Source: an archaeon
GTDB lineage: Archaea; B1Sed10-29; JAJRYS01
Length of the DNA stretch: 38,494 bases
Assembly (NCBI GenBank): GCA_038736665.1
Contig: JAVYMF010000001.1
Span: forward strand, 1 to 38,494
Reading direction: 5' to 3'
Under the pieces are notes generated by a model. That model had not been told where the DNA came from. It was given only the letters and a program-made list of their open reading frames with translations, and ran no database searches. Shown here one piece after another: positions 4,651 to 33,159 of this stretch (its first letter is position 1; each line of letters begins with the position of its first letter). The position numbers and the translations under genes are program-made.

Positions 4651-4652
4651 AC

Positions 4653-14759: not shown

Positions 14760-14766
14760 TTTCCGT

Positions 14767-15810: not shown

Positions 15811-16878
15811 CTCCTCGTACTTTTCAATAGTCCTATCTATTGAATGTTCAACAGCGTGCTTTCTCGCGTTTTTCCTCATAGAACTGAAGTCATTGCTTTT
15901 TATCACGCTTGCTAACCCACGGTAGTCGTTTGGCTTGAACAAGAAACCGTTTTTCCCAACGCGGATGCTTTCAGGCACCGCCATGCCGTCAGCTCCCACG
16001 ACGGGCGTTCCGCAGGCCATGGCTTCAAGCACGACGAGCCCCAGCGTTTCAGTGTCGGACGCCGTGATGAACACGTCGGCAGCCGAGTAATACAGGCTTT
16101 TTTTCTCCTCAGGCACGTAGCCTAAAAAGCGCACTTTGCTGCTTAAACTTAATTTTTCCGCGAGTTCCTTCAAGTAATCAGAAGCAGGGCCTTTTCCGGC
16201 TATCAAGAGAACGTCATCATTCCCTAAGAACTCTTTCGCGGCTTTTATCACGACGTCTATTTTTTTCTCGAAGCCTAGCCGCCCTAAGTAAAGATAAACG
16301 TTCTCGTAGTCCAGGCCGAGCTTTTTTCTCGCGTTCGGGACAGGCCGCAGGGCGTTTGTGTCAACGCCCGTAGGTATAAGCTCGCATTTTTCCTGCAGCT
16401 CTTTCGTCATGGTTTTTTTAACAGCGTTGCTCAGCACTATTATTGAGTCGTATTTTTTGTAATGGTAATTAATGTATTTTCTCGCGATTTTTGCCGTGTG
16501 CCTTTTGCCGTATTTTGAGATGTAGTGCGTGTACTCGCTGATGAGCGTGTGGTACGTGGTGACGCTCGGTATTCCCTGCTTTTTGGCGACGCGCAGCCCG
16601 AACAAACCCATCGAGAAAGGCCCGTGCGTGTGCGCGACATCCAATCGCGGGACTTTCATGTTTATCGGCAGCGCTATCTTGTAGTCAGGGTAGGGCTTGA
16701 AAGTTATGGCTGGGCAAGAGTGAACCAGCATTCCCAAATTCGTTTTTATATCTGTTTTCGGCGCGAAAACGTGCAAGTCATGCCCGCGCTCGGCGAGCCG
16801 CGAGCCCACCATGTCCAGCGTAGTCACGACGCCGTTCGTCTGCGGGTGGTATGTTTCAGTGAAGTTGCCTATTCTCAT
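15781..16878 (-). CDS. Glycosyltransferase family 4
   Basis: MRIGNFTETYHPQTNGVV...; GRLGFEKKID; ASDTETLGLVVLEAMACGTPVVGADGMAVPESIRVGKNGFLF. ATG at 16878 is preferred over GTG at 16887. It converges on the previous gene with a 30-nt overlap. Confidence 0.88.
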   Translation of the reverse strand: MRIGNFTETYHPQTNGVVTTLDMVGSRLAERGHDLHVFAPKTDIKTNLGMLVHSCPAITFKPYPDYKIALPINMKVPRLDVAHTHGPFSMGLFGLRVAKKQGIPSVTTYHTLISEYTHYISKYGKRHTAKIARKYINYHYKKYDSIIVLSNAVKKTMTKELQEKCELIPTGVDTNALRPVPNARKKLGLDYENVYLYLGRLGFEKKIDVVIKAAKEFLGNDDVLLIAGKGPASDYLKELAEKLSLSSKVRFLGYVPEEKKSLYYSAADVFITASDTETLGLVVLEAMACGTPVVGADGMAVPESIRVGKNGFLFKPNDYRGLASVIKSNDFSSMRKNARKHAVEHSIDRTIEKYEELYERLVNLK

Positions 16879-16968
16879 TCTAATCACTCTTTGCTTTTTT
16901 ATCAGTTTTTATGTACTCTTTACCTATTATCTGTTTGCTGTTTTTATCTTCATCTTTTACAAGTTTTT

Positions 16969-17520
16969 TTATAAAAATTGAAGTTGTTGAATTTTTTTCT
17001 TAAGGTCAGTGAAACTCTTTATTCCTAAAGACCACGAGTCAAGACCTTTGTCAAGGACTATGTAACCAGAGGGGTTTGACAACTTGCCCTCTTTTCTTCT
17101 GAAATGAATTGTGGAGTTTATTGCGTCGATGATGTACCAGTTGTTATTAGCGAAAACTTCAGCCCAAACATGACCTTCAAGAGAGGCATCAGATTTGTCT
17201 AACCATTTCATACTGATGCCTTCGACGTACTTTGTTGGTATGCCTTTTGCGCGCGCCAACGCGATGAAAGCAAGCGCGAAGTCAGAGCAGCCCGTTCCGA
17301 AGCCGTCTTTTATTATTTTCTCAGCAGTGCGTTTCCTGAAAACTCTGCTTTTTATTTTCTTGTCATTCTCTAGTTTGACGGTCTCAAGCAGCCATTCTAC
17401 TATTGAGACACAAGTATTAAGGTTATTGCCTTTGAATTTTTCGGCTATCTTTTTTATGTAAGGTGTTGCTTTTGTCTGATCACCTTCTTTCAGCCAATCT
17501 TCATGCACGAGAGTCACCAT
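16969..17520 (-). CDS. Transglutaminase-like cysteine protease-fold protein
   Basis: GTGCSDFALAFIALARAKGIPTKYVEG...GHVWAEVFANNNWYIIDA provides the Cys-His-Asp triad context of the transglutaminase core. Confidence 0.8.
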   Translation of the reverse strand: MVTLVHEDWLKEGDQTKATPYIKKIAEKFKGNNLNTCVSIVEWLLETVKLENDKKIKSRVFRKRTAEKIIKDGFGTGCSDFALAFIALARAKGIPTKYVEGISMKWLDKSDASLEGHVWAEVFANNNWYIIDAINSTIHFRRKEGKLSNPSGYIVLDKGLDSWSLGIKSFTDLKKKIQQLQFL

Positions 17521-19367
17521 GGTATGAACAAAACGCTCAGCAGTGACAGCGCTATCGCGCCGCCCATCACCAAAGGAGCAATTATCGAGAGCATGGAAAC
17601 CATCGAGTTTATCGTCGCGACGATTTCAGTCGCTTTCTGTGCGCCGAACACTTCGACGTCCTTCACTTTAATTACTGCTGTTCCGGCGCTTACTTCTTCA
17701 AGATCTTTAAGCGCTTTTTTAACGGCTTCTTCAGAGCGACGCACTAGCACTTCCACAGGTATCCTTGCACCCACGGGATTGTCGACTCCTTGAATGCTGT
17801 TTACGCTGTGCGTGTCAGTCGTCAGCACTTCCACTTCGTCGAGGCCAAGGCGTTTTATTCGTTCGATTATTTTCTCGCGCGCTCCGCTGACTATATTATT
17901 CGCGTCAAACACTATTAAAGCGGTACTGTTTTTTCCGGCGCTTATAACCGCGGCGCGCAGCCCCGCGTATCCTATTCCTTCGCGCACCGAGTAATCCCTC
18001 ATGTCGTCTACTGCAACGCCCAGCCTTAATCTGTTTTTTTTCTGCTTAGAGAGTTTTTTGGCGGCTTCGTTCATGGCGTCGATTAATTCGAACATCATCG
18101 GGTCGCCTGAGTACATCGTGTGGTGCCCGGGATGATGCGAGTTGTGTGCGTCAACGCATATCACGTTCTTGTAATGCTTCTCGAGCTTGTTCATTACGGC
18201 AAGGCCGATGGTGAAATCAATGTCTTCTGTCGGCTCGGGCGCGAACGTCGAGATCAGAAGCGCCGAGTCCCCGAATGACTGGGCGAGGACTTTCGACTTG
18301 CCGCGCTGCACGCGGACCGACGGAGTCGCGCTTGGCGAGTGCTTTATTTTTTTAACGGCGTCGACGCATTCTTCCGCTATCCTGTAGATGTCGTCCGTCT
18401 GAAGTGGGTTGAGGTCGTGCGTCGCAGTGCCGTGCGGAATAATCACTGTGGCTCCCAATTCTTTTTCGCATACTTGCGTGAGCGCTCTCGTCAGCTTTCC
18501 GCCGCCAACTTCGCCGAAAGGCCCGGGATGCAGGTAAGGGATTATGAACAAGGATTTCAAGCGGTTTTTGGCTTTGAAGGATGCAAGTCCGACGTACGCG
18601 TCCGTTTTTTCGGACAGAGGCTCTAGTTCTTTCTCGATTGCCGTGGAACCGTCGAGCCAATGCGCCAGGAAAGTGCCAGCGAGCTTGAAAGTGCTGGCGC
18701 CGAAGATGCGCTTGGCAGGCGCGTTTATGAGCAGGATTATGAGCATAACGCCTATGAGGAAAATCGAGAAGCCTATCGTGATTTTAGCGAGCATCAGGAC
18801 GGGCGATATCGGCGGCAGGGGGAGCACGGAGCTTGTGGTAATCATTTGCGTTGAAGCGACCATGAACGCGAACCCGAGCGCTGGATGAATGGCAGCGATT
18901 CCAGAGGCCTGTATTATGTTGTAAGGGTGCGTGAGCATCAGAGCGAACACCCTTACCGCGAAAACTATTATGTAACCGAATATCATGAGGTCGAACACGA
19001 CTTTTGCGTTTCCAAGGGAGCAGATTATTCCCAGCAGGTAAGTTATTCCAACTACCATCATGCCTGCGAAAGCCAAGTAGCTTGAACGGTTGAACAATAA
19101 TTCTTTTCTCATCGGCTTCGTTATGAAGAACGAGAGCCACCCCGCCAGCACAGAGGGTATTCCGAGGAACACGAGCCCCATTATTGACCCGTACCAGACC
19201 AAATTCAAGGGGTTAATTGAGTTGACGTACACAGCGAAGCCCAGCACGCCTATTACGACTGAAGCAAAGAGAGTGAGGACTGTCGTTGTCTTCGTGTCAG
19301 GAAGTTTCCTCAGATAATTCGTGAGGGATACGAACTGTATTTTTTTGTCCTTGTTGTTCCCGTTCAT
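17514..19367 (-). CDS. Polytopic membrane protein with a large C-terminal soluble domain (DUF2070-like, archaeal)
   Basis: About 7 N-terminal TM helices are followed by a roughly 370-aa soluble region (PYLHPGPFGEVGGGKL...IIPHGTATHDLNP...CVDAHNSHHPGH) and a final TM helix. The DUF2070 name is from recollection of that architecture only. Confidence 0.8.
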   Translation of the reverse strand: MNGNNKDKKIQFVSLTNYLRKLPDTKTTTVLTLFASVVIGVLGFAVYVNSINPLNLVWYGSIMGLVFLGIPSVLAGWLSFFITKPMRKELLFNRSSYLAFAGMMVVGITYLLGIICSLGNAKVVFDLMIFGYIIVFAVRVFALMLTHPYNIIQASGIAAIHPALGFAFMVASTQMITTSSVLPLPPISPVLMLAKITIGFSIFLIGVMLIILLINAPAKRIFGASTFKLAGTFLAHWLDGSTAIEKELEPLSEKTDAYVGLASFKAKNRLKSLFIIPYLHPGPFGEVGGGKLTRALTQVCEKELGATVIIPHGTATHDLNPLQTDDIYRIAEECVDAVKKIKHSPSATPSVRVQRGKSKVLAQSFGDSALLISTFAPEPTEDIDFTIGLAVMNKLEKHYKNVICVDAHNSHHPGHHTMYSGDPMMFELIDAMNEAAKKLSKQKKNRLRLGVAVDDMRDYSVREGIGYAGLRAAVISAGKNSTALIVFDANNIVSGAREKIIERIKRLGLDEVEVLTTDTHSVNSIQGVDNPVGARIPVEVLVRRSEEAVKKALKDLEEVSAGTAVIKVKDVEVFGAQKATEIVATINSMVSMLSIIAPLVMGGAIALSLLSVLFIPW

Positions 19368-20320: not shown

Positions 20321-22000
20321 ATGAAGCGCACGCTTGCATTAATTCTGCTTTTGTCATGCGCAGCGATAGCCCAGCCGCACGACGCGGTGCTGAACGTCAC
20401 GTACCCGTTTCCAGTTGACAGCAGCGGCTTCGTGGAGCTCCGTGCGCTGGCCGGCTTCAATGATTCCGGGAACTTCATGTGCTACGGCACAAGCGTGAAC
20501 GCGACGGTGAACGGCGAAAATTACTCGCTCGACCCGCAGGTCGGCTGCTATTACACAAAATTCCTTCAGCTGGCTGACGGCGACTACAGCATCTCTTTCA
20601 ACGCGTCGTACCCGGAGCCTCTTGAAAGCAAGAGTTCGTCATACGTCCTTTCTGTTTCAAACTGGACAAAGCCTTACGTCAAAATCTACTCCCCAGCGCC
20701 AGGGCAGTCGTTCAGGCCGTCCGACTGGGTGTTCATCGAAGCGGCGGGCTTCATAAAGAACAGCATGATTGACGGCACCATGCGCGCTGACATAATCAAC
20801 TCGCTGAACGAGCCGATGAACTCGGCGTTTCTCTCTTCGTCTAACAAAGTCTTCAAGGGCTGGATTAAGTTAAACGTCAGCGACGGAGACTACTATCTGC
20901 GCTTGACTTTTTCAAGCGGGCAGTTCACGGTGCAGAAAAGCGTGGGCATCAAGGCGAACGCTTCGGCAGCACCAGGCGAATTGACGTCGGGCTCTATAAG
21001 CATGATTTACCCGCGCGAAAACATGACGTTCGACAAGAACGAAACTATTCCGTTCGAATTAGAATTCCGTGACTTCAATGAACTGCTTGTGAAGGGCGCC
21101 GCCGTGACCATGAGCATTTACAAGGGCGAGTCGCTCGTTGACACGGTCCGTTTCAACGAGAGCGCGTACTCTTACGTCGCGCAGTACGTTTTTACTGAAG
21201 CGGGCAGGTACGAGTTGCGCTTCAGAGGGGTTTCCGAACGCTTCGAGGCGGAATCGACGTACTCAATAACGGTAGGCAACGCTACTGAAGTGGCCCAAGC
21301 AGAGAATTTCGTGGTCAAAATACTGGTGCCTCGGGCCGACGTGTACGCCACCAACAGCGAGATAATTGCGCGTGCGCGAGTGCGGTTGAACGGCGAGCAG
21401 GTTTCTTCTGACGTTAGGTTTTTCGTTGACAGCTCTGAAGTCGCGCCGCACCGCGATTCGTACGGCGACTACGTCTTCATTCTTTCCTCCTTGCTGCAGG
21501 GCACGCACTCGATAAAAGCCATTGCCGAGAAAGACGGCATGAGCGCCGTGGATTATGTCGAGTTCGCGGTCAGCGACCATGTCCTGAGCGTTTCGTGGCT
21601 GGACCCTGATGAGAACGGCACTGCCGTCATCGCTAAGGGGGATCGCCTTGTTCTGAAAGCGTCCGTGAATGACGAGAGCGGCGATGCTGTCGCCGGGGTT
21701 TTCGTTATCGCGGAAATCATTGAGCCGAACGGTCGCGAGATACAGGTGCGCTTGTTTGAAAGCGAGGACACACCCGGAGTTTATCTAGGGGATTATTACC
21801 CGAGCCTTGAAGGAACGTACAAGGTCCACGTCACTGCCGCGAAAACAGGTTATGTCGCGCGCGTGAAGGACGTCTTGTTCGGCATAGCCCTTGAGAAGCA
21901 ACAGATAATCCCAAGCCTCGACGTAAGTACGGTGCTCCTGATTATTCTGGCTATGGCGATAGTCATTTTCGTCCTGGCTTTCCTGAAGCTGATATTCTGA
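20321..22000 (+). CDS. Secreted, C-terminally membrane-anchored repeat protein (candidate surface glycoprotein or adhesin), first gene of the filament locus
   Basis: Sec-type signal MKRTLALILLLSCAAIAQP. About 13 N-x-S/T sequons. About four modules of roughly 110 aa each open with a similar strand (YVKIYSPAPGQSF / ISMIYPRENMTF / VVKILVPRADVY / LSVSWLDPDENG). C-terminal TM helix VLLIILAMAIVIFVLAFLKLIF. Confidence 0.85.
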   Translation: MKRTLALILLLSCAAIAQPHDAVLNVTYPFPVDSSGFVELRALAGFNDSGNFMCYGTSVNATVNGENYSLDPQVGCYYTKFLQLADGDYSISFNASYPEPLESKSSSYVLSVSNWTKPYVKIYSPAPGQSFRPSDWVFIEAAGFIKNSMIDGTMRADIINSLNEPMNSAFLSSSNKVFKGWIKLNVSDGDYYLRLTFSSGQFTVQKSVGIKANASAAPGELTSGSISMIYPRENMTFDKNETIPFELEFRDFNELLVKGAAVTMSIYKGESLVDTVRFNESAYSYVAQYVFTEAGRYELRFRGVSERFEAESTYSITVGNATEVAQAENFVVKILVPRADVYATNSEIIARARVRLNGEQVSSDVRFFVDSSEVAPHRDSYGDYVFILSSLLQGTHSIKAIAEKDGMSAVDYVEFAVSDHVLSVSWLDPDENGTAVIAKGDRLVLKASVNDESGDAVAGVFVIAEIIEPNGREIQVRLFESEDTPGVYLGDYYPSLEGTYKVHVTAAKTGYVARVKDVLFGIALEKQQIIPSLDVSTVLLIILAMAIVIFVLAFLKLIF

Positions 22001-22066
22001 TTTTAAGAGCGAACAAAAACCGCCGTTACTGATGGATATAAAAACTTGTTTTGCTTCTGGTTTTTT

Positions 22067-22459
22067 ATGAGAGGAGTCAGCGAGGTTGTGGCGATTTCGC
22101 TTCTTGTAGCCATGGCAGTGCTGCTTGCGATGGGTTTCATTTACTGGGGCTCAGGTTTTTATTCGCAGAAGAGCGCCGAGTCGCAGGACATTTTCAGGAA
22201 AGGCATTTCAAACGCTTACGCTGACGTGGACATCATTAACGCCACATGGTACTCTGGCAACAAAACCGTTTACGTGGCGGTCAAGAACACAGGGGGCGTT
22301 GACTTGACAAAAGTTTACGTGATGGCAGGCGTTCAGATAGGCTACTTTGAGTCTTTGGCGCCCGGACAGACCTCTTATGTTTCTTTCGCGCTTTCTTCAA
22401 AGCCGGAAAAAGTCATAGTTTCCGCTTACGAGGGGGCTTCTGATGAGCAGCTGCTTTAA
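22067..22459 (+). CDS. Type IV pilin-like protein 1 (class III signal peptide)
   Basis: MRG|VSEVVAISLLVAMAVLLAMGF resembles the archaeal pilin/archaellin N-terminal domain. A beta-rich C-terminus includes TVYVAVKNTGGVDLTKVYV. The start is set at ATG 22067. Confidence 0.8.
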   Translation: MRGVSEVVAISLLVAMAVLLAMGFIYWGSGFYSQKSAESQDIFRKGISNAYADVDIINATWYSGNKTVYVAVKNTGGVDLTKVYVMAGVQIGYFESLAPGQTSYVSFALSSKPEKVIVSAYEGASDEQLL

Positions 22460-22931
22460 AGGCGTTTCAAACGTCGTTTCAGTCGCTCTCATAACCGGCT
22501 TCATTGTAACGTCAGTTACTATTGTTTTCCTGTGGGCCTCTCCTCTTCTTGACAAAAGCGTGAAAATCGCGGAGCTGGAAAGGATGAAATCCAAGATGTC
22601 TGACATTGACGACGCGATACGGCTCGTGTCGCACTCGGGCGTGAACTCAAGCAGAAGCGTTTTTGTTTCAGTTTCAAAAGGCAAGCTCTTGCTGTCGAAT
22701 TCGTCTGTCGTTTACGTTGTTGACGTTGGAGAGGCCATGCTCAAAGACGGCGTTTCCGTTCAGGAGAGGAATATGTGGATCACTGGCCGTGGTACTTCGG
22801 TCGAGCTAAAGCTGAACTACTCAGGGATTCAGCTCGCCGCAAATGACATTGTGATGGGCGACAGGAATATCGTCATCACCAAAATAGGTGCTTCCGGCGG
22901 AAAGCCCGTGGTGGGGGTCGTTGCTTCTTGA
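22443..22931 (+). CDS. Type IV pilin-like protein 2
   Basis: MSSCFKG|VSNVVSVALITGFIVTSVTIVFL. It overlaps the upstream gene by 17 nt. Confidence 0.75.
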   Translation: MSSCFKGVSNVVSVALITGFIVTSVTIVFLWASPLLDKSVKIAELERMKSKMSDIDDAIRLVSHSGVNSSRSVFVSVSKGKLLLSNSSVVYVVDVGEAMLKDGVSVQERNMWITGRGTSVELKLNYSGIQLAANDIVMGDRNIVITKIGASGGKPVVGVVAS

Positions 22932-23347
22932 AGGGCATTCTTTCAATCAGTCAAGTGCTTTACTTTGGTTTCGGCGTTATGGCCCTCATAGCTGTTGTCT
23001 ACTTGATGACTTCTTTTTACTTGGCCACTAAAGCTGTCTCGTCAGAAGTCGCTATGGACGACGTCTTAAAAACCCTTGATTCGGCTTCAACGAAGCTTTA
23101 CTTCGAAGGCCTGGCTTTCAACGCCGAGAACTCAAGGATTTACCTGAAGCTTCCTGCTAAAGTGGCAGGAAGCAAGTACAGGATAAAGTTCAACAATACT
23201 TCAAGAGAGTTCTGCTTCGTTTTTCCCGAAACCCGTTGCAAAAAAACGTATTTATTGGCAGGAATCGTTCAGATAAACGCCGACATCGACAGCTCTAAAA
23301 GCGAGCATTACATGTATTACTTAAACAAAACTATTCAGGTGGTCTGA
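22928..23347 (+). CDS. Type IV pilin-like protein 3
   Basis: TTG start in a TTGA overlap with the upstream stop. MKG|ILSISQVLYFGFGVMALIAVVYL. Confidence 0.7.
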   Translation: MKGILSISQVLYFGFGVMALIAVVYLMTSFYLATKAVSSEVAMDDVLKTLDSASTKLYFEGLAFNAENSRIYLKLPAKVAGSKYRIKFNNTSREFCFVFPETRCKKTYLLAGIVQINADIDSSKSEHYMYYLNKTIQVV

Positions 23348-24850
23348 TTGCCTAAGAAAAAAGCGAAAAAACCAGCCTCAAAGCAAGGGGCAAGTGCGCC
23401 TGGAAAAAAAGAGAAAGAATTCACGCGCGAATATTTCGTTATTGAGCCCTTCGCAAGAATAAAGATAATGATGAAAGGGCAAAGTTACGTTTATAATCTC
23501 ATCGAGCCAGACTTGGGCTCGCTGAAAAAAGACTTTGAAAAAATAAAAGAAATCATGATATCAGACATAGAGTTTTCAGTGGAAGAAGTAAAAGACCCCG
23601 AGGATTACCTCATAAAAAAGATGGACGAAATCATCAAAAAAGAAAACATCTCAGTGTCCCCTGAAGACAGGGATAAATTCATTTATTACTTGAAAAACGA
23701 GTTCATAGGGCTGGGAAAGCTTGAGCCCCTGCTTCAGGACAAGGACATAGAAGACATCAGCTGCAACGGCCCGGGAATTCCTATATACATAAGGCACAGG
23801 GTGCTCGGCTCGCTGGAGAGTAACATATTGTTCAACGAGCAGGAGCTTAATTCTTACGTGATGAGGATAGCGCAGAAATGCAACAGGTTCATATCTTACG
23901 CGCAGCCATTGTTGGACGGCAGTCTTCCGGACGGTTCCCGCGTGCAGGCCACGTTCGGCGGAGGAGTGTCCATAAAAGGACCCAACTTTACCATAAGGAG
24001 GTTCCGCTCAACGCCGTTGTCTCCGCTGGACTTAATCGAGCTGAATACAGGCAGCTACGAGCTGTTCGCTTACTTCTGGGAAGCGATTGAAAACGGCATG
24101 AGTATTCTCGTTAGCGGGGGTACAGCAACCGGAAAAACCTCTTTCTTGAACGCGTTAGCGCTTTTCATTCCTCCTTCGCTTAAAGTGGTTTCCATCGAAG
24201 ACACTCCTGAAATCAACATTCCGCACGAGAACTGGATTCAGTCGGTATCGCGAGCAGGATACGGAGCCGAGAACTACGGGGAAGTGACGATGTTTGACCT
24301 ACTGAAGGCGTCTTTCCGCCAGCGTCCTGACTACATAATTCTCGGAGAAGTGCGGGGCCAGGAAGCGTACGTTTTGTTCCAGTCGATGGCTTCAGGCCAC
24401 CCGGGGCTCGGCACTATTCACGCCGAGTCGGCCGACGCCATAGTTGAAAGGCTGCTCTCGCCGCCGATAAACCTCTCGCCTGCCCTAATGGAATTGCTTG
24501 ACGTGGCATGCATCCTTGTTTTCGCTCCGAAGATATCGCATAACGCGAGGCGCGTCAAAGAAGTCATCGAAATACTTTCAGTCTCGCCTGAAGGGCAATT
24601 GCGCTCGAACACAGCGTACAGATGGGTGCCTATTGACGACGAGTTCGAGATGGTCGGCTCGTCCAACGTAGTGGCAAAAATATCGAGGATGAGGGGAAAA
24701 ACCGAAGACGAAATATGGGAGGAAATCCGCGAGAAAGAAGCGCTCCTTAAAAAAATGAAAGAAAAAGCTTCTAATTACAGGGAATTCTTCGACTTGATGT
24801 CCCTTTACTACGCTGAAAAAGCGACTCTCCTGAAAAAACTGGGTCTGTGA
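23348..24850 (+). CDS. Type IV filament assembly ATPase (ArlI/FlaI/PilB-like, T2SSE/VirB11 superfamily)
   Basis: N-terminal YFVIEPFARIKI..YVYNLIEP. Walker A is SGGTATGKTS, Asp box VVSIEDTPEI, Walker B PDYIILGEVRGQEA, and His box GLGTIHAES. TTG start lies directly after the upstream stop. Confidence 0.92.
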   Translation: MPKKKAKKPASKQGASAPGKKEKEFTREYFVIEPFARIKIMMKGQSYVYNLIEPDLGSLKKDFEKIKEIMISDIEFSVEEVKDPEDYLIKKMDEIIKKENISVSPEDRDKFIYYLKNEFIGLGKLEPLLQDKDIEDISCNGPGIPIYIRHRVLGSLESNILFNEQELNSYVMRIAQKCNRFISYAQPLLDGSLPDGSRVQATFGGGVSIKGPNFTIRRFRSTPLSPLDLIELNTGSYELFAYFWEAIENGMSILVSGGTATGKTSFLNALALFIPPSLKVVSIEDTPEINIPHENWIQSVSRAGYGAENYGEVTMFDLLKASFRQRPDYIILGEVRGQEAYVLFQSMASGHPGLGTIHAESADAIVERLLSPPINLSPALMELLDVACILVFAPKISHNARRVKEVIEILSVSPEGQLRSNTAYRWVPIDDEFEMVGSSNVVAKISRMRGKTEDEIWEEIREKEALLKKMKEKASNYREFFDLMSLYYAEKATLLKKLGL

Positions 24851-24851
24851 A

Positions 24852-26861
24852 ATGTCCATTTACTCAGTGCTCGTAAAAGCGTATGCGAAGCTATGCAACA
24901 GCTTCCTGTGGCCTGTTTCCAGGAAAATAGCCAAGCGCTCTCCGAGCGTCGAGTCGGACTACAGGAAAGCAGCTTTCCCTTTTTCTTACGAGGAATACAT
25001 TTCAATGGCTTTGTTCACGACGGTGTTCGTGGCCTTCGAGACCTTCGCGTTCTCCTCCACAGTGGTTTTTCTTTTCGAGTACAACGCGCCTACCGCTCCT
25101 CCAGCGGCTTTCCCAGCGCCTGCCGCTGCCTCCCAGACATCGCCAGGCATGGAATTTGAAATCATTTCAGAGCATCAGGTAATGCTTTCCAACAGCACAG
25201 TGACTATTTCAGTGACTTCAAACACTTCCTCGACTTCGTGCGAACTGCAGCTTAACGGCGTGACTTACGACATGCCCCTGCAGAAGCCTGAGAGAGTGTG
25301 CTTTAACGTTTCAAGCAAAGAAGGGGGCCTGGCAGAGTATTGCCTGTCGCCGGTTTCAATCAGCCAAGACAGTTACAACTATTCATACTCCCTCGCCAAT
25401 CCGCAGCCTGGGCAATACAATTACTCTGTTTCATGCTCGAAGCCGTCGTTTTACAGAAACGGGTCCTTCCAAGTGTTTGCTTCAGCGTCCCCTATTAAGG
25501 TAAGCGCTGACCACTACCCATTCAATCTGCTAATAATAAGGGATTCGTCCGAAGTCGGTTCGGCCCATATTCTTTCAGAGTCGTCCGTGCTGGTGCCTGA
25601 CGGCATCTCCAAACTAAAAGCCGTTTACGAAGGCGCCGAGTCGGAAATAAACGTTTCCGTTCCCGCTGTGAAATCAGTTCACTTTGCTTTCCAGTTCGGC
25701 TCAGTTCAGTTGACAGCGCCTGCTTCAGGAGTTATTGAGTTCCGCAAGGGCAACTACTCAATTGAAAAAGAATTCAACGGCTCGCTCGAGCAAGAGCTGG
25801 GAACGGGCCATTGGGAATACAGCATGAAATCGCAGGGGTACGCAGACGCTTCAGGCTCTTTTGAAGTAGCCGCCGGCAGCGCGACTCAGTTGAGCGTTTT
25901 TATGCTCAGGAAAACAATGCTGCAGATTGCCACTGAGCCAGAAAAGCCGGCCACAAACGCGAAAACGTATTTTATCGTGAACTACACTGACTCGTTCGGC
26001 AGGCCATTAGCCGGATTCAAAGCCAACGTCACTGTCGACGGCCAGCAGGCCGCGGAAGAGAGCCTGGGTTTGTACTCTTATTTCTTCAATTCCTCTTCAG
26101 AAGGGACACACACAGTTGTTGTCAGGGCCAGTAGGGATTTTTACGAGGACCAATTAAAAGTAATATCATTGAACGTGGTTTTCAACCAGGAAAGGCAGGA
26201 CTCCTTAAAAATGGGCATCAGGGTCACCATGACCTTGCTTCTGGCTTTCGTGACTGGCTTTATTTTCATGCTTTACCCGTCGCAAAGAGCGTCGTCGCGT
26301 GAGTCGTCAATCGACTCGACGCTGCCTTTCGTCCTGTCGCACATGTCGTCCATGGCCAAGTCAGGCATATCTGTTTCGGAAATCATCCGGCTCATGGCGA
26401 ACTACTGTGCTTACGACGAGCTCAGGAAAGAATTCTCGAAAATGCTGAAATCCATGGAAATCCTCGGATACGACCTCATCAAGGCAATCAAGACAACCGC
26501 TGAAAACACCCCCTCCAAGAAATTTTCGGACATACTTAGTTCTCTGGCGACGACAATACACTCAGGGGGGAACATATCGTCTTTCCTGAAAGACAGGGCT
26601 GACTCGACAAGGCTCGACCTCACAATCTCGGCAAAGGAAAAAACGTCAGCCATGGCGTTGCTTGGGGAGATATACATCATAATGTTCGTGGCCGTGCCCA
26701 TTTTCGTGGCAGTGATGCTCATAGCAATGGAGTTCGTTTCAGCGGGAGCGCTTCCCATATCACCTATAATGGCGCTCAAGCTGTCTGCGTATGTGTTCAT
26801 ACCTGTCATGACTTTTGTGTTCATAGTTTACTTGATGAAAGAGCTTAATGCAGGGATATGA
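24852..26861 (+). CDS. Platform protein, half 1 (single T2SSF domain, ArlJ/PilC/TadB-like) with a large extracellular insertion
   Basis: First TM region is FTTVFVAFETFAFSSTVVFLF. A Pro/Ala linker and a sequon-rich insert of about 350-400 aa follow. A second TM is MTLLLAFVTGFIFML. The T2SSF domain is LPFVLSHMSSMAKSGISVSEIIRLM...ATTIHSGGNISSFLKD, followed by the terminal TM helices. Confidence 0.85.
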   Translation: MSIYSVLVKAYAKLCNSFLWPVSRKIAKRSPSVESDYRKAAFPFSYEEYISMALFTTVFVAFETFAFSSTVVFLFEYNAPTAPPAAFPAPAAASQTSPGMEFEIISEHQVMLSNSTVTISVTSNTSSTSCELQLNGVTYDMPLQKPERVCFNVSSKEGGLAEYCLSPVSISQDSYNYSYSLANPQPGQYNYSVSCSKPSFYRNGSFQVFASASPIKVSADHYPFNLLIIRDSSEVGSAHILSESSVLVPDGISKLKAVYEGAESEINVSVPAVKSVHFAFQFGSVQLTAPASGVIEFRKGNYSIEKEFNGSLEQELGTGHWEYSMKSQGYADASGSFEVAAGSATQLSVFMLRKTMLQIATEPEKPATNAKTYFIVNYTDSFGRPLAGFKANVTVDGQQAAEESLGLYSYFFNSSSEGTHTVVVRASRDFYEDQLKVISLNVVFNQERQDSLKMGIRVTMTLLLAFVTGFIFMLYPSQRASSRESSIDSTLPFVLSHMSSMAKSGISVSEIIRLMANYCAYDELRKEFSKMLKSMEILGYDLIKAIKTTAENTPSKKFSDILSSLATTIHSGGNISSFLKDRADSTRLDLTISAKEKTSAMALLGEIYIIMFVAVPIFVAVMLIAMEFVSAGALPISPIMALKLSAYVFIPVMTFVFIVYLMKELNAGI

Positions 26862-27664
26862 AAATGAACGTTTCAAAGCAGACGAAAATAGTGCTGTTGA
26901 TTTCGTTATCGATAGTCCTGGCGTTCCTGCTTATAAGGCTCTTCGTCGCCGCGCCGTCGCAGGTTCCACTTGTTGAAATGATGATGGTCGTCGGAGCGCT
27001 TTTCCCGCCGATGATTTACTCCCTTGTGTCCTACAGGGTCATGAAATCCAAGGAAGAAGCTTTCCCGTCTTTTTTGGCGGACATATCGAACAACCTGCAG
27101 ATAGGAATCTCTCTTTTTGATACAGTCGAGCTGCTTACGAGAAACAACTACAAGGCCCTGACAGGGGACGTTAAGAAAATGCACAGGCAGATGACGTGGG
27201 GCCGCTCCTTCTCAGACGCGTTCAAGGAACTGTGCGAGAATTCGAACTCGCAGCTCATAAAAAAATCAGGCTACGAGATAATATCAACCATCGACTCTGG
27301 CGGGGAGCTGTCGAAAGTCCTGATGGGAGTTTCGCTGAGCATGAAAGAATACCAGAATGTCATGAAAGAAAGGAAAGCTCAGATTTACGAGCAGACCATA
27401 ACGGGCTATCTCGTGTTCTTCATTTTCCTCGGCATAATTTACGTGCTTATAACGCAGCTGCTTCCGTTCGTCAAGACAACGCCACTCGGCACGCCGTCAG
27501 CCACGCCGGAGACATACAAGCAGGTGTTCTTTCACTTCTGCCTCATTGAAGCTGTATGCATCAGCTTCGTGACAGGCGCTATGGCAGAAGGCTCAATAAC
27601 AGCAGGCTTCAAGCACGTGCTAGTGCTGGTCACCGCGACTATACTCGTGTTTGCATTCGTGTGA
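26858..27664 (+). CDS. Platform protein, half 2 (single T2SSF domain, ArlJ/PilC/TadC-like)
   Basis: ATGA overlap with half 1. Two TM helices are followed by FPSFLADISNNLQIGISLFDTVELL...ISTIDSGGELSKVLMGVS and then C-terminal TM helices. Confidence 0.85.
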   Translation: MKMNVSKQTKIVLLISLSIVLAFLLIRLFVAAPSQVPLVEMMMVVGALFPPMIYSLVSYRVMKSKEEAFPSFLADISNNLQIGISLFDTVELLTRNNYKALTGDVKKMHRQMTWGRSFSDAFKELCENSNSQLIKKSGYEIISTIDSGGELSKVLMGVSLSMKEYQNVMKERKAQIYEQTITGYLVFFIFLGIIYVLITQLLPFVKTTPLGTPSATPETYKQVFFHFCLIEAVCISFVTGAMAEGSITAGFKHVLVLVTATILVFAFV

Positions 27665-27671
27665 TTCGCTT

Positions 27672-28166
27672 ATGAAAGGATTCATGGAAACAGATATGGT
27701 GGTTTCAGTCGCGATTTTCCTTGTTTTCGTTATAATCATGTCGATCACGCTTTCAGGTCAGTTAGCGGTTTACAAGGAGAGGTCCGAAAAAGAAATGAGG
27801 GAAGCCAAGGCCCGCGACACGCTGAACATGATGATAAGGTCGCCAGGCTACCCTGAAAGGTGGGACTTGAACGCGTCTTCAATAACGAGCTTCGGGCTGG
27901 CTTACGACTCTTTCTTTTCAAGGCCCGCCCTGCTGGATTTCAGGAAAATAAACGCCACAAGCCAACTGGCATACCAGAAGCTCAAAGAACTTAACGACGC
28001 GGAAGACATAAGCATACTCATCGAAGACAAGGACCTCAACGTTTCGTATTCTTTCGGGCAGCAGTCGCAGAGGAAAAAAATATCCTCGGTCCAAATGCCG
28101 ATAGCCATAAGATACGCTTACGGTAATGTGTCAAAAGGCAAAATCACGGTGACAGAATGGTTCTAG
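27672..28166 (+). CDS. Type IV pilin-like protein 4
   Basis: MKG|FMETDMVVSVAIFLVFVIIMSITL. The start is set at ATG 27672. Confidence 0.7.
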   Translation: MKGFMETDMVVSVAIFLVFVIIMSITLSGQLAVYKERSEKEMREAKARDTLNMMIRSPGYPERWDLNASSITSFGLAYDSFFSRPALLDFRKINATSQLAYQKLKELNDAEDISILIEDKDLNVSYSFGQQSQRKKISSVQMPIAIRYAYGNVSKGKITVTEWF

Positions 28167-28546
28167 GATACCTGAAATCAATAGAAGCAGTGCTTGCAGT
28201 GATGCTGGCTGTGTTCATGCTCCTGCAGGTTCAGCCCGTTTACGAGCCGGCTACAGCATGGGACCAAACGAACCTGCAGCAGGCAGGCGAGAACGCTTTG
28301 CTGGCGCTGTCATACTCGAACGAGCTGAGGCAAAAAATCGCTTCAGGGGATTATATAGGGCTGAACGCTTCGTTCTCCAGAATAATGCCCGAAGGCATAA
28401 AGTTCAACTTGTTCAAGGACGATCAGCTGGTAATAAACAACGGGAACGCCGGCAGGGGAATGACGTCAGTTGTTTACTTCATCTCAGGCAACACCACTTA
28501 CAGCCCGGCGAAGCTCCAGATGCAGCTGTGGTACGGAGGCAACTGA
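28157..28546 (+). CDS. Type IV pilin-like protein 5 (weaker signal)
   Basis: MVLGYLKS|IEAVLAVMLAVFMLLQV. It overlaps the upstream gene by 10 nt. Confidence 0.6.
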   Translation: MVLGYLKSIEAVLAVMLAVFMLLQVQPVYEPATAWDQTNLQQAGENALLALSYSNELRQKIASGDYIGLNASFSRIMPEGIKFNLFKDDQLVINNGNAGRGMTSVVYFISGNTTYSPAKLQMQLWYGGN

Positions 28547-28547
28547 C

Positions 28548-29279
28548 TTGAAAGCCCAGTTTTACTTAATATCAGCGGCTGTCATCATAACTTTCCTGCT
28601 TTTCGCGTCGCTGTTCATCAGCCATAACCCCTCGCCTGCCTCGGCTTTTTACTCGAACAACGACGTGTTCCTGGCCAGCAACCTACTGCTTGAAGCCCAG
28701 CATCTCATAGAAACAGGAAACTTCGTTAACGTCAGCAGCTTCGTGAATTATTCGGACGCGAAGCTGAGCGAAATGGGCTACGACCTGAAGTCAATCTACG
28801 GCTACTCACCGATAAGCGGCGAAACAAACCTGGACCTGGACTACTCAGGCCAGTCGCAAAAAGGCACTAGGACAGTCGCTGAAACAAACTACATATGCAA
28901 CAACTTTAACAGGACCGTGACGTTCGACTTTTACTGGAACGCGTGCATGCTTGAAACGCAGGCCAGCGCGGTCAGTGACAGGGAGTGCAACGTCACCCTC
29001 CATCCTTTCGAATGCTACGAATCAAATTTGCTGAAAAAAGTCCCAGGAAACAGGGACCTCATAGTGTTCACAGCGAAAAACGAGTCCAACAAGGAAGTCA
29101 TGAACATCTGCATGTACACCGGAACAGGAAACCTCACTTACTCACAGAACATCACGTTCGGCGTTTACCTCGAGCTGAACTTAACGAGTTCGGACTCGGA
29201 TATATTCGTTAACTCTTTGTACAGGACGCCGTACTGCTTGAACCACTGCCCCAAAGAAGACGTCACAAGCTGCGGATAA
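28548..29279 (+). CDS. Type IV pilin-like protein 6, cysteine-rich globular domain
   Basis: Re-started at TTG 28548, 1 nt after the upstream stop, which gives (M)KA|QFYLISAAVIITFLLFASLFI, a textbook class III signal. The mature part has 9 Cys and several N-x-S/T sequons. Confidence 0.7.
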   Translation: MKAQFYLISAAVIITFLLFASLFISHNPSPASAFYSNNDVFLASNLLLEAQHLIETGNFVNVSSFVNYSDAKLSEMGYDLKSIYGYSPISGETNLDLDYSGQSQKGTRTVAETNYICNNFNRTVTFDFYWNACMLETQASAVSDRECNVTLHPFECYESNLLKKVPGNRDLIVFTAKNESNKEVMNICMYTGTGNLTYSQNITFGVYLELNLTSSDSDIFVNSLYRTPYCLNHCPKEDVTSCG

Positions 29280-29312
29280 AGATTTAAATAACAAACTCTC
29301 TCATTGATTACC

Positions 29313-29963
29313 ATGGCATTCAAAAGGCAAAAAACAGGAATAAAAGAGCTGGACAAAATGCTAAACGGGGGAATTCCCGAGCGCAGCTCGATAGTCATAA
29401 CAGGCGGACTCGGAACAGGAAAAACAGCCCTCACGATGCAGCTGCTGTACAACGCCGCGAAAAACGGCGACCGCTGCTTGTTTGTATCCCTTGAAGAAAG
29501 TCCGCAGGACATAATCGACCAGTCCACCTCGTTCGGCTGGAACGTCGGCGACCTCGTGAAGAAAAACATGATAATAATACAGCACCACGTCCAGCTTGAC
29601 TACGACTCGCTGGAAGTGTCAATAGAAAACACGCTCAGAAAATACAAGGACATCAAGTTCGTAGCAGTGGACCCCATCTCAATGCTCAAGATATACTTCA
29701 AGTCAGAGACAGGGTTTAGGATAGCGCTTTTCCGGCTTTCGCAACTTTTCAAGAAGCACAACACCACAGCGTTCCTCGTGGAAGACGAGACAGAATCGAC
29801 AGCGTCAAGATTCGTTTCCGACGGAGTCATAATGCTTAAAATAGAAAAAAAAGAAACAGGAAAAGTCAGGACTCTTGAAGTGCCGAAAATGAGAAAAACA
29901 GCGCACGAAATAGAGCCGGTCACGTTCAAAATAACCGACAAAGGCATCCAGCTTTTCCTCTGA
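29313..29963 (+). CDS. KaiC/RecA-superfamily ATPase, ArlH(FlaH)-like
   Basis: TGIKELDKMLNGGIPERSSIVITGGLGTGKTALTMQLLYN provides Walker A. LFVSLEESPQDII is also present. KFVAVDPIS is Walker B-like. Single-domain size of about 216 aa. Confidence 0.8.
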   Translation: MAFKRQKTGIKELDKMLNGGIPERSSIVITGGLGTGKTALTMQLLYNAAKNGDRCLFVSLEESPQDIIDQSTSFGWNVGDLVKKNMIIIQHHVQLDYDSLEVSIENTLRKYKDIKFVAVDPISMLKIYFKSETGFRIALFRLSQLFKKHNTTAFLVEDETESTASRFVSDGVIMLKIEKKETGKVRTLEVPKMRKTAHEIEPVTFKITDKGIQLFL

Positions 29964-30297: not shown

Positions 30298-30840
30298 TTA
30301 TCGCTTTCTATAACGGAACGCGGCCATCAGCAGCACAAGACCCGTAACGGCAAGCGTTATGCCGAGCTTTTCAGCGTCGACGAACTCGTGCTGCACGAGC
30401 AACGCTTCATAGCTCTTCTCATCGGTTTCCGTCGCCTCTGCGCCTGCAAGCGCGTTCTGGTCAATTATTTTCGCAGGCGCGAAAGCGGTCGCAGGCTTCG
30501 TCAGCGATGAATAAGCTAAGAACATGCCCGCAAACAAAAGAATCAGCGAGACGCTTAACGCGAACACGAAAACCGGCGTTTTCGCGCCGGGCGACACTAT
30601 CGCCGCGCCTTTTTCCGTTAATTCGTAATACACCCATTTTTTGCCCTGGTTCTTGCGCGTTATCAGGCCGGCGTCGCCCATCTTCTCAAGATGCTCGGAC
30701 ACCGTCGACGTGGCCACGCCAAGTTCCTTAGCGAGCTCTGACTGCGTCTTGCGCCGCTGCCTCAAGCTCTTCAGTATTTTTACCCTGGTATCTATCGCGA
30801 GAGCTTCGAACGTTTTCTTGTCAAGAGTTATTTCCGCCAT
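30298..30840 (-). CDS. Membrane-anchored ArsR-family winged-helix regulator
   Basis: MAEITLDKKTFEALAIDTRVKILKSLRQRRKTQSELAKELGVATSTVSEHLEKMGDAGLITR is an ArsR-type wHTH. Two TM helices follow (VFVFALSVSLILLFAGMFLAY and ITLAVTGLVLLMAAF). The start overlaps the upstream stop by 1 nt (TAATG). Confidence 0.8.
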   Translation of the reverse strand: MAEITLDKKTFEALAIDTRVKILKSLRQRRKTQSELAKELGVATSTVSEHLEKMGDAGLITRKNQGKKWVYYELTEKGAAIVSPGAKTPVFVFALSVSLILLFAGMFLAYSSLTKPATAFAPAKIIDQNALAGAEATETDEKSYEALLVQHEFVDAEKLGITLAVTGLVLLMAAFRYRKR

Positions 30841-31886
30841 TAATACCACTGGCATTGGTTTGAAATGCATCCGCATTTTTTGCCGTAAGCTTCGCTGTCA
30901 TAGCATTCCCTGTATTCGCATGTCGTTGCTATAGGCTTGTCATTTTTAGAAGCGCATACCTGCATTGAGCAGCCTTCTTTCACGCAGTCGGCGTCGGATC
31001 CGCATCCGCTGTAAGTGGACCACCCGCAGAAACTCGTTTTGCAATTGTCCACGTCAACGTACTTGAACTTCTGCAGAGGGAAAGAAAACCTTCTTACTTT
31101 CACTATATGGTAAGGCGTATCTATCCCAGCCGGCAACGATGAGCAGTTGTTCCTTATCCTTAACACTTGGATGTCAACCGAGCTCTTGCTTGACGGATAA
31201 ACGCTGTCTATTGATATTTTGTTTCCGGCGCCTGTGCCTTCGCTCAAAACAGCCAAGACTAAGTTGGTTTCAAAATCGATTTCAGGAACAGTTATTAAGC
31301 ATTCATCGTCGTATTTTCCGCACTTGACTTCCTTGTAGAAAATTTCCCAACTGCTTTCATTTCTTATCACGAATTCCTTCTTATCGCCGAGCGCCATTTT
31401 ACTGTCAAAATACTTGTGCACGCTCCCAGATTCTACTTCAGTTAAAGCAAAATACGAGACGCATTTTGTGCCATTCCACACAGCTTTGGCTCCGCAATCG
31501 CACGTTTTAACTTCATGGCTGTTTTCAGGAGAGCAGCCGCACGCGCCGATTAAATCCGTTCTCGGGAAGTCGCCCACGCTCAAGCAGCAGAGAGACGTCG
31601 TAACAGTTCCGCCTGACGACGTGCAAGCGTTTTCAGGACTGAAAACGCAGCCGCTGCCTTTGACGAATTCGTATCCATCATCGCACACTGTTTTTATCTT
31701 GCACTGGAAGTTCTCGCAGTAAGCTTTGATATTCCCGTTAGGCGTATGTATAGTCGGTAGAGGGCAGTCGCTGTCCTGCAGGCAAAAGCCGCCGGCGCTG
31801 CTCACGCAGCCCGTCACGAGCGATAGCGATACGACCAAAATCAACAGTTTCATCGCGTCCGGCTTTACTGCTTTAACTAATTCCAT
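30840..31886 (-). CDS. Cysteine-rich secreted lipoprotein (about 29 Cys) with a PrcB_C-like central domain
   Basis: The lipobox is MKLLILVVSLSLVTGC. The Cys-rich N-terminal part includes FCLQDSDCP..YCENFQC. The centre, EIDFETNLVLAVLSEGTGAGNKISIDSVY..TPYHIVKVRR, resembles PrcB C-terminal domains. The C-terminal cluster is FCGWSTYSGCGSDADCVKEGCSMQVCASK..CEYRECY..CGCISNQCQWY. The start is ATG 31886 or 31853; the track start at 31994 would overlap the mat start. Confidence 0.8.
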   Translation of the reverse strand: MELVKAVKPDAMKLLILVVSLSLVTGCVSSAGGFCLQDSDCPLPTIHTPNGNIKAYCENFQCKIKTVCDDGYEFVKGSGCVFSPENACTSSGGTVTTSLCCLSVGDFPRTDLIGACGCSPENSHEVKTCDCGAKAVWNGTKCVSYFALTEVESGSVHKYFDSKMALGDKKEFVIRNESSWEIFYKEVKCGKYDDECLITVPEIDFETNLVLAVLSEGTGAGNKISIDSVYPSSKSSVDIQVLRIRNNCSSLPAGIDTPYHIVKVRRFSFPLQKFKYVDVDNCKTSFCGWSTYSGCGSDADCVKEGCSMQVCASKNDKPIATTCEYRECYDSEAYGKKCGCISNQCQWY

Positions 31887-31983
31887 GATTATCGCTCTTG
31901 TTAAAACATAGCGTCCGGCTTTTAAAGCATTTTGTTTTTCATTCGGTGAAAACCTTATTAAGAAACGGCGCGTATTTCTCAGC

Positions 31984-33159
31984 ATGCGAAACATTTACGT
32001 CGAAACTATTCAGAAGCCCCTGCATGATATTGAGTTTGTGGAAAGAAAAGGATTAGGGCATCCTGACACCATCTGCGACGCGCTCGGCGAGGAAGTGTCC
32101 CGCGCTCTCTGCAAAGAATACACAAACCGCTTCGGAGCGATACTGCACCATAACGTTGACAAGATAACGCTCGTCGCGGGCCAGAGTGCGCCGAGGTTCG
32201 GCGCGGGCGAAGTGATTTCGCCGATTTACATAATGCTCGCCGGGCGCGCAACGCAGAACGTGGACGGCGAGCTTTTTCCAGTTCAAGAGATAGCGATTGA
32301 AGCATGCAACGAGTATTTGGAGAAAAACTTCTTTGCTTTGGACGTTCCGACGAACGTTGATTTGGACTCGAAGCTCGGTCAGGGCTCTTCTGATTTGCAA
32401 GCCGTGTTCCAGCGCAAAAGAGACATGCCTCTGTGCAATGACACAAGCTTCGGAGTGGGCTACGCGCCGTTTGACGAGCTTGAAAAGCTTGTGTATGACA
32501 TAGAACAGTTTTTGACAGCTGAAAAATACAGGCGCAAGAACCCTTTCATAGGCGAAGACGTCAAGGTGATGGGAATGCGCAAAAAAGACGGCTATACAAT
32601 CACGGTCGCTAACGCTTTTATCGGACGCTACCTCAGCGACGTTAATGACTATATGGAAATGAAGGAAAAAACCGTTGCTGAAGTCCGCGAGCTTGTCAGC
32701 AGAGAGTCGGAAAACGAAGTCAGCCTCTTATTCAATAACTGCGACGACTATGAGAGCGAAAGCGTTTACTTGACTGTCACAGGCTTGTCAGCTGAGAACG
32801 GCGACGACGGAGCGATAGGGAGAGGAAACCGCGTTAATGGCCTGATAACGCCGAACCGCCCGATGAGCCTCGAAGCAGTTGCTGGAAAAAACCCAGTGAA
32901 CCACACAGGGAAGATCTACAACATCCTCGCCCACAGGACTGCTGAGCAGATAGTGGACGAGCTGAGCGTTGACGAGGCGTATGTGAAAATACTTTCAGGG
33001 ATAGGGATGCGCATTGACGAGCCCATGGCAGCAGGCATACAGCTGGTCGGCGCTTCTGGCGAGGACGAGAAAGAAGCGTTTGACATACTCGATTATAACT
33101 TTGAGAACATTCAGTCGCTAACGCGCTTGTTCGTCGAAGGAAAAATAAAGACGTTCTGA
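31984..33159 (+). CDS. mat: S-adenosylmethionine synthetase, archaeal type
   Basis: MRNIYVETI...[29 protein letters not shown]...HHNVDK...[47 protein letters not shown] is characteristic of the archaeal MAT family. Confidence 0.93.

Follow-up and report, generated by a model that had tools for sequence, protein, structure and literature searches.

A large predicted outer domain in one half of a split type IV pilus platform from an archaeal contig

The archaeal contig JAVYMF010000001.1 (assembly GCA_038736665.1; the whole stretch of 38,494 nucleotides was analysed and is called the window) carries a type IV pilus locus whose platform protein is encoded by two adjacent open reading frames (ORFs), ORF1 (24852-26861, + strand, 669 aa) and ORF2 (26858-27664, + strand, 268 aa). 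ORF1 harbours a large insertion between its first two transmembrane (TM) segments, and the data support the view that this predicted ectodomain is a rare, unannotated and lineage-specific variant of the platform. With a probability of roughly 0.5, we read the pair as the split N- and C-terminal platform halves of an archaeal type IV pilus machine, in which the outer loop of ORF1 would be a glycosylated, immunoglobulin-like (Ig-like) stalk with a strut or collar role.

Position, topology and predicted fold of the ORF1 loop

The platform pair is composed of the following parts (evidence in brackets; AF2, AlphaFold2; pLDDT, predicted local distance difference test):

24852 to 25076, + strand: ORF1 aa 1-75, conserved cytoplasmic N-terminus and TM1 (alignment with 17 short relatives; hydropathy)
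25077 to 25148, + strand: ORF1 aa 76-99, flexible Pro/Ala-rich linker (sequence; pLDDT <50; 26-27% identity between orthologues)
25149 to 26186, + strand: ORF1 aa 100-445, inserted ectodomain with three predicted Ig-like modules (AF2; Foldseek; glycosylation sequons; absence from the short relatives)
26187 to 26861, + strand: ORF1 aa 446-669 and stop codon, TM2, T2SSF helical bundle and TM3-TM4, the N-half platform module (Pfam T2SSF)
26858 to 27664, + strand: ORF2, the C-half platform module, with a TM1-TM2 hairpin, T2SSF and 2-3 further TMs (Pfam T2SSF)

Two orthologues serve for comparison: P0002, 54% identical to ORF1 and encoded at locus L001 of a Micrarchaeota metagenome-assembled genome (MAG; NCBI GCA_013425355.1); and P0003, 33% identical and encoded at locus L002 on a JGI metagenome contig. 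The hydropathy profile of ORF1 gave an N-terminus (aa 1-49), a first TM segment (~50-75), the loop (76-455), a second TM segment (456-474), the T2SSF domain and two C-terminal TM segments. According to the published topology (PMC10191384), the cytoplasmic domains of platform proteins are large and their periplasmic loop is small; the position of ORF2 equivalent to the ORF1 loop holds 6 residues. When ORF1 was aligned with 17 short (~290 aa) single-module relatives, aa 76-~445 formed one gap in all 17 and the flanks (aa 1-75 and 446-669) aligned fully; the loop is therefore a true insertion of ~370 aa, lying between the first two TM segments and within the 350-400 aa given by an earlier note on this DNA. 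By this alignment, ORF1 is a standard N-half whose outer loop between TM1 and TM2, normally tiny, has gained ~370 aa.

The T2SSF domain must be cytoplasmic to meet the ATPase and it is one TM segment away from the loop, so the loop is predicted to be extracytoplasmic, the sole location consistent with a cytoplasmic T2SSF; the topology comes from the hydropathy scan and the AF2 secondary structure, which agree. The sequons, the cysteines and the predicted Ig-like fold point the same way. The loop contains 12 N-x-S/T sequons compared to 3.5 ± 1.6 in shuffled sequences (none of 3000 shuffles reached 12), and the loops of the three orthologues contain 12, 11 and 12 compared to 3.5-4.3 expected (reached by <=0.03% of the shuffles), the count outside the loop being 1 in each; the loop is thus probably N-glycosylated. 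All four of its cysteines are conserved between ORF1 and P0002, and the first 35 residues after TM1 lack K/R. The sequon richness and the outward orientation proposed in the earlier note are thus supported. Its description of the domain as Pro/Ala-linked was right for one side: the Pro/Ala-rich linker (aa 77-99, NAPTAPPAAFPAPAAASQTSPG) is confined to the N-terminal side of the loop and there is none at the C-terminal side.

The loop diverges about twice as much as the rest of the protein (42% and 21% identity in the two comparisons, against 72% and 46% in the membrane/T2SSF module); its length varies between 342 and 384 aa across the orthologues, and its Gly/Tyr/Trp core positions are conserved. 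As a separate observation on TM1, E63 (window ~25038-25040), which lies inside this segment, is invariant in ORF1, P0002 and P0003, and acidic residues occupy its N-terminal edge (E47/E48 conserved in ORF1 and P0002, E48 in all three).

The AF2 model of the loop is all-beta (mean pLDDT 77.9), with three predicted tandem beta-sandwich (Ig-like) modules at ~aa 100-209, 212-340 and 344-443, preceded by the disordered Pro/Ala linker. Every match that Foldseek returned from the PDB was a tandem Ig-like array (Sidekick, Dscam, complement MG domains, a bacterial ice adhesin, and the S-layer proteins SbsB and SlaB); in Pfam, the three modules matched only Ig-like families, all below threshold (MtxA_IG-like, GldM_3rd, Filamin, Big_1); and a sequence search of the PDB gave no significant match. 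Structure prediction followed by Foldseek, the approach that the earlier note had recommended for this domain, thus yielded the fold class, Ig-like, and no specific homologue.

Reality of the split, its relatives and the rarity of the loop

The T2SSF domain (Pfam PF00482, gathering cutoff 25.2 bits) is present once in ORF1 (aa 495-622, E=1.1e-16, 61.4 bits) and once in ORF2 (aa 72-198, E=1.3e-14, 54.7 bits), and both proteins are polytopic, with the T2SSF bundle between TM helices (hydropathy scan and, for ORF1, AF2 secondary structure). The stop codon of ORF1 and the start codon of ORF2 overlap in an ATGA at 26858-26861, checked base by base; the Pfam matches and this check agree with the separate genes, one per repeat and joined by ATGA, that the earlier note had described. 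A conserved N-terminus, which P0003 has and which is also encoded ahead of the P0002 gene call, backs the start of ORF1. L001 has the gene order of the window (ATPase, long T2SSF gene, short T2SSF gene) and again an ATGA overlap; L002 shows the C-terminus of the ATPase, then P0003, then an ORF2 homologue whose GTG start overlaps the TAA stop, GTGCCTAA. ORF2 is 70% identical to its partner in L001 and 48% identical to that in L002. A side observation concerns the deposited record of P0002, whose gene call begins 34 codons too late (L001 2049-2150): the conserved N-terminus MSIYSVLLKTYARLCNSFLWPVSRKIAKRAPSLE lies in frame just upstream of the call, beginning 5 nt past the ATPase gene.

Because three assemblies with different junction sequences keep two overlapping genes, the split is genuine and an indel artefact is ruled out, as the earlier note had argued. 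The wider explanation, that what is really a single two-repeat platform gene has been interrupted by a recent pseudogenising mutation or by an error of sequencing or assembly, draws on the different frames of ORF1 and ORF2, which a single indel could fuse, but its probability is practically negligible: the three assemblies are independent and retain the two genes at 33-54% identity, with stop/start overlaps that differ in sequence; ORF2 starts with its own TM hairpin, like stand-alone C-halves; about 90% of the nearest relatives are single-module; and the two-gene arrangement has already been published for archaea.

The identity of each half was established by comparison with fused platform proteins. 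In the NCBIfam models of ArlJ, UpsF and BasF, the part that ORF1 aa 448-660 matches is the N-terminal half, and the part of the ArlJ and UpsF models that ORF2 matches is the C-terminal half; in all of the 16 fused two-module relatives, the ORF1 module best matches the first module and the ORF2 module the second. A neighbour-joining tree separated two clean groups: the N-modules, all the single-module relatives and ORF1; and the C-modules, ORF2 and the ORF2 orthologues. This tree, which was built without support values and without Epd or Tad sequences, backs the N/C assignment and not a dated or single fission event. By these comparisons, the N-terminal half of fused ArlJ/UpsF-type proteins has its counterpart in ORF1 and the C-terminal half in ORF2; the pair is collinear with a fused platform gene and therefore fits the expectation for gene fission. 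The two halves share 26% identity (E=4e-6) and are, judging from this alignment, old paralogues.

The earlier note had considered a two-gene platform unusual for an archaeon, which is contradicted by the literature and by the relatives of ORF1. Denise et al. 2019 (PMC6668835) described two adjacent single-T2SSF genes, originated by gene fission, both in Epd-like archaeal pili and in Tad; Makarova et al. 2016 (PMC4858521) reported two tadC-like genes in clade 1, in many clade 2 euryarchaeal loci and in clade 4B loci, and listed KaiC ATPases and vWA proteins as accessories; and in Methanococcus maripaludis EpdJ and EpdK are each essential for piliation (PMC4371748). ORF1 matched 1813 of 1.84 billion 50%-identity representatives in an exhaustive HMMER search, and a survey of 151 proteins (the query and the best 150 of the 1813 matches) included ~135 single-module and ~16 fused proteins. 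The split itself is another example of a known arrangement.

The insertion is different in this respect. Among the best 150 of the 1813 matches only P0002 and P0003 align across the loop, so that the insertion layout occurs in 3 of the 151 surveyed proteins, corresponding to 3 clusters among the 1.84 billion representatives. In the neighbour-joining tree (again without support values), the three proteins with the loop, ORF1, P0002 and P0003, group together as a single clade amid short single-module proteins, which suggests that the loop was acquired once, after fission. A word-indexed homologue search with the full protein or with a 3-sequence profile returned P0001 and P0002 only; two scans of species-representative genomes found no relative; a literature search found no description of such an outer domain on a platform protein; and P0002 is named at NCBI merely by its family ('type II secretion system F family protein'). 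The claim that the insertion is rare and unannotated is upheld by the survey and by this name.

Other long proteins among the relatives were considered as carriers of the insertion and rejected. The long relatives (400-1018 aa) have their extra sequence N-terminal to both TM segments; it is rich in K/R/E, poor in cysteines and sequons and has a conserved motif of its own, consistent with a cytoplasmic extension, that is, a different architecture. The apparent 213-aa loop of P0123 has an inconsistent topology and is probably due to a false TM call. A side observation concerns the N-terminally extended proteins: P0006, P0008, P0012, P0024, P0025, P0028, P0030, P0048, P0052, P0100 and others carry 100-800 aa before the TM hairpin and are single-module platform halves of DPANN-type archaea, one of them named Woesearchaeota. 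The extension is charged, cysteine- and sequon-poor and presumably cytoplasmic, matches no Pfam family, and bears within its first ~100 residues the motif ...EYQxGK..Y.EY..LLKGK..EEW..YYN.YIYSLLKKIE...

A different explanation of the ORF1 loop is that it is a passenger, a captured segment of a surface protein tolerated in a permissive loop, which may serve as a general tether between membrane and S-layer or as a membrane shield but would have no specific role in pilus assembly. Its confinement to those 3 clusters, its absence from all the other split platforms aligned, the far lower conservation of the loop than of the rest of the protein, the generic, sub-threshold nature of its Pfam matches and the presence just upstream of a gene for a separate Ig-like surface protein (20321-22000) all favour this explanation. 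We nevertheless judge it rather unlikely, since the similar length, the Gly/Tyr/Trp core and the confident fold, maintained at 21% loop identity, argue for selection, and the neighbouring surface protein shows no detectable relation to the loop; capture of the loop from that protein is unsupported (BLASTP E=0.019, hhalign probability 2%).

The pilus locus and its comparison with named systems

The locus is an archaeal type IV pilus machine operon, including a PilB/FlaI-type ATPase, the split platform, six pilin-like ORFs with archaeal class III (prepilin-like) signal peptides (three upstream and three downstream of the ATPase and platform genes) and a KaiC/ArlH-like ATPase. Its genes other than ORF1 and ORF2 are as follows (a slash marks the predicted cleavage site):

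22046 to 22459, + strand: pilin-like gene 1, class III signal peptide MRG/VSEVVAISLL... (signal-peptide heuristic)
22443 to 22931, + strand: pilin-like gene 2, KG/VSNVVSVAL... (Pfam DUF7289, E=4.8e-9; 58% identity to the L001 gene)
22928 to 23347, + strand: pilin-like gene 3, MKG/ILSISQVL... (signal-peptide heuristic; 48% identity to the L001 gene)
23348 to 24850, + strand: PilB/FlaI-type assembly ATPase, 500 aa (Pfam T2SSE, E=9e-30)
27651 to 28166, + strand: pilin-like gene 4, MKG/FMETDMVV... (signal-peptide heuristic; 42% identity to the L001 gene at the same position)
28157 to 28546, + strand: pilin-like gene 5, LKS/IEAVLAV... (signal-peptide heuristic; 44% identity to the L001 gene)
28470 to 29279, + strand: pilin-like gene 6, LKA/QFYLISAAV..., 269 aa, 8 sequons (signal-peptide heuristic)
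29304 to 29963, + strand: KaiC/ArlH-like accessory ATPase, the end of the operon (NCBIfam KaiC_arch_3, E=3e-37)

The assembly ATPase stops 1 nt before ORF1 and scores 383 bits against the NCBIfam FlaI model, under its 550-bit cutoff; the KaiC-like ATPase matches the ArlH/FlaH models (E=1.8e-15) at 57-59 bits, under their cutoffs of 194-215. Pilin-like gene 1 is the one pilin-like ORF of the six that passes NCBIfam TIGR02537 (archaellin/type IV pilin N-terminal domain; 24.7 bits, cutoff 20), gene 3 has a weak match to Pfam DUF7266, and Gln follows the predicted cleavage site (+1) in one of the six. The operon is conserved in L001 (ATPase 80%, ORF2 70%, KaiC-like ATPase 69% and pilin-like genes 42-58% identity). 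The true start of pilin-like gene 6 is probably downstream of 28470 (the listed start is a TTG); its L001 counterpart (L001 5729-7063) has 444 aa and an additional vWA domain, and the alignment between both is limited to the N-terminal ~70 residues (38% identity).

The window can be assigned to an archaeon because it carries an archaeal signal recognition particle (SRP) RNA and an archaeal-type S-adenosylmethionine (AdoMet) synthetase. The nearest relative of ORF1 is from the Candidatus Micrarchaeota MAG and further close relatives are from Diapherotrites and Woesearchaeota, which suggests a DPANN-like organism.

The closest arrangements are those of the Epd-like pili (EpdJ/EpdK of Methanococcus maripaludis) and of the other loci with two tadC-like genes: like the window locus, they have adjacent single-T2SSF genes beside a PilB-type ATPase, together with pilin genes and an accessory ATPase of the KaiC/FlaH type, of which the KaiC-like ATPase here is a candidate counterpart. 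They differ in that none of the Epd or other archaeal platform halves has been described with a large extracytoplasmic domain such as is predicted for ORF1. Epd-like pili also have an EppA-type prepilin peptidase and pilins with Gln at +1; this Gln is no general feature of the six pilin-like ORFs (one of six). No peptidase of the A24 family (EppA-type) was found among the window ORFs scanned, a scan that took in part of the ORFs, and the gene could lie elsewhere.

The bacterial Tad system (TadB/TadC, also CpaG/CpaH) shares a platform made of two single-repeat proteins, a presumed heterodimer that would be the equivalent of a single PilC (PMC11300603). According to the mapping published by Denise et al. 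2019, in which TadC corresponds to the N-repeat and TadB to the C-repeat (PMC6668835), ORF1 would be TadC-like and ORF2 TadB-like. The window locus differs from Tad in its gene order, N-half and then C-half, and in the outer domain, since TadB and TadC have no large one; neither a secretin nor TadZ was seen in the window ORFs scanned. A tblastn search against 72,556 plasmids gave five records, all of them haloarchaeal 'T2SS F family' genes, and no bacterial TadB/TadC match, and the NCBIfam results for the ORFs contained no model of a Tad platform protein. The Tad-like character proposed by the earlier note thus stands for the architecture and does not extend to sequence similarity at the tblastn level.

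The fused platforms (ArlJ/FlaJ, UpsF, BasF, PilC/GspF) have the same T2SSF repeats, with ORF1 and ORF2 collinear with their halves, but are single polypeptides with a small outer loop only (PMC10191384). The bit scores of ORF1 are far below the equivalog cutoffs (ArlJ 83.5 of 550, UpsF 47.3 of 400, BasF 52.9 of 1300) and the best ArlJ match covers half of the model; to judge from these scores, ORF1 falls outside the archaellum platform family ArlJ/FlaJ. No archaellin was found at the pilus locus, and ArlF gave only a match under the cutoff, on the 22046 ORF (E=1.8e-4, 21.7 bits, cutoff 110).

Several neighbouring genes deserve mention. The 559-aa protein encoded directly upstream of the pilus operon (20321-22000, + strand) begins with a signal peptide, ends with a TM anchor and contains 13 sequons and matches to Ig-like domains (Filamin, Big_7, YtkA); it could be a surface or surface-layer (S-layer)-like partner of the pilus. 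Next to the cluster, on the opposite strand, lies a gene for a winged-helix regulator of the ArsR/MarR type, which has hydrophobic segments towards its C-terminus and is apparently anchored in the membrane (30298-30876, - strand). A cysteine-rich 384-aa protein with an N-terminal hydrophobic segment and no Pfam match (30840-31994, - strand) is possibly secreted or at the surface. Three GT4-family glycosyltransferase genes (13587-16887) are followed by a DUF2070 membrane protein gene (17514-19367); these genes may serve glycan synthesis, and they lie close to the clustered genes for surface proteins rich in sequons. Elsewhere in the window, an HD-domain ORF (4048-4650) and a dihydrouridine synthase ORF (4503-5645), both on the + strand, overlap by ~148 nt, the GVG-type start of the latter being probably placed too far upstream; housekeeping landmarks are a tRNA (1498-1580), the archaeal SRP RNA (2471-2745) and the FtsZ gene (2870-3946).

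Possible roles of the ectodomain and their meaning

The reading that we favour, of split platform halves bearing an outer stalk, would work as follows. By extension from published Tad models (PMC11300603, PMC10191384), ORF1 and ORF2 would pair back-to-back into one PilC-equivalent unit, and one to three such units, seated on the hexamer of the ATPase, would transmit its movements to the membrane pilins and feed these into the filament. The inserted loop would form an N-glycosylated stalk of three Ig-like modules projecting between the membrane and the S-layer, its last module abutting TM2 and the flexible Pro/Ala tether leading back to TM1. As a strut or collar at the pilus base, this stalk may tie the platform to the S-layer or guide the filament through it. 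An S-layer has been described in a cultivated Micrarchaeon (bioRxiv 10.1101/2021.04.28.441871).

The best functional analogy for the loop is the pseudo-periplasmic stator of the archaellum, ArlF/FlaF and ArlG/FlaG: anchored in the membrane, their beta-sandwich domains occupy the space below the S-layer, as is predicted for the ORF1 loop; FlaF is a beta-sandwich protein that anchors the archaellum and binds the S-layer protein (PMC4425475). ArlF and ArlG differ in being separate monotopic proteins outside the platform, with no detected sequence relation to the ORF1 loop, so a strut job performed in the archaellum by separate membrane-anchored proteins would here be built into the platform. Taken alone, the strut or collar role is the likeliest of the roles considered here, but it is speculative and its odds are less than even.

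Several points weigh against the favoured reading. The AF2 model was made from an alignment only 3 sequences deep, and the TM helices have a pLDDT <50 in the full-length model; the Foldseek TM-scores were ~0.2 and therefore identify the fold class, neither a specific homologue nor a binding site; one sequon column only is conserved in all three orthologues; the ectodomain is not needed for the core mechanism, because hundreds of related split platforms work without it; and the placement of the window organism in Micrarchaeota or DPANN is taken solely from the nearest relative.

The same features could be those of a contact sensor or adhesin: the ectodomain would bind a ligand on a host cell or surface and switch the platform and ATPase via TM1 and TM2, so that pili are built or retracted on contact only. 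The relatives are DPANN archaea, whose cultivated members are host-dependent ectosymbionts; tandem Ig-like arrays typify proteins of adhesion and recognition; rapid evolution, which the loop shows, is frequent in recognition surfaces; and the loop is joined to both helices that flank the cytoplasmic T2SSF domain. However, the loop is membrane-anchored at both ends, its three Ig-like modules probably measure ~10 nm (a rough estimate) and may not clear the S-layer, Pfam scans detected no ligand-binding family, and we found no precedent in the literature for signalling through a platform protein. We regard such a sensor as quite improbable.

A bolder version of the strut or collar is that several ORF1 ectodomains, one per platform heterodimer, encircle the pilus base as a glycosylated ring or barrel and bridge the space from the membrane to the S-layer. 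Cryo-electron tomography (cryo-ET) of a cultivated Micrarchaeon showed barrel-like densities embedded in the envelope beneath its S-layer (bioRxiv 10.1101/2024.05.20.594898), and a ring of this kind could correspond to them. Such a ring is a very long shot; if it were true, the platform itself would be the envelope conduit or stator supplied elsewhere by PilMNOP and a secretin or by ArlF/G, and it would be fixed against rotation.

Returning to the split platform with an outer stalk, its interest lies in the protein concerned. Among the core components of type IV filament machines the platform protein is understood least, and its copy number and rotation are open questions (PMC10191384, PMC11300603). 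Apart from a small outer loop, a canonical platform lies almost wholly in the cytoplasm and the membrane, in contrast to the ~40 kDa outer domain predicted for ORF1, which is folded in the model and probably glycosylated; this variant indicates that the TM1-TM2 loop tolerates large insertions. The ectodomain would provide a built-in external landmark, from which cryo-ET or surface labelling could tell where the platform sits and in what stoichiometry. If the domain is anchored in the S-layer, this would speak against a freely rotating platform in this system. The ectodomain may also be added to the surface elaborations of DPANN archaea, whose cell-cell contacts are poorly understood.

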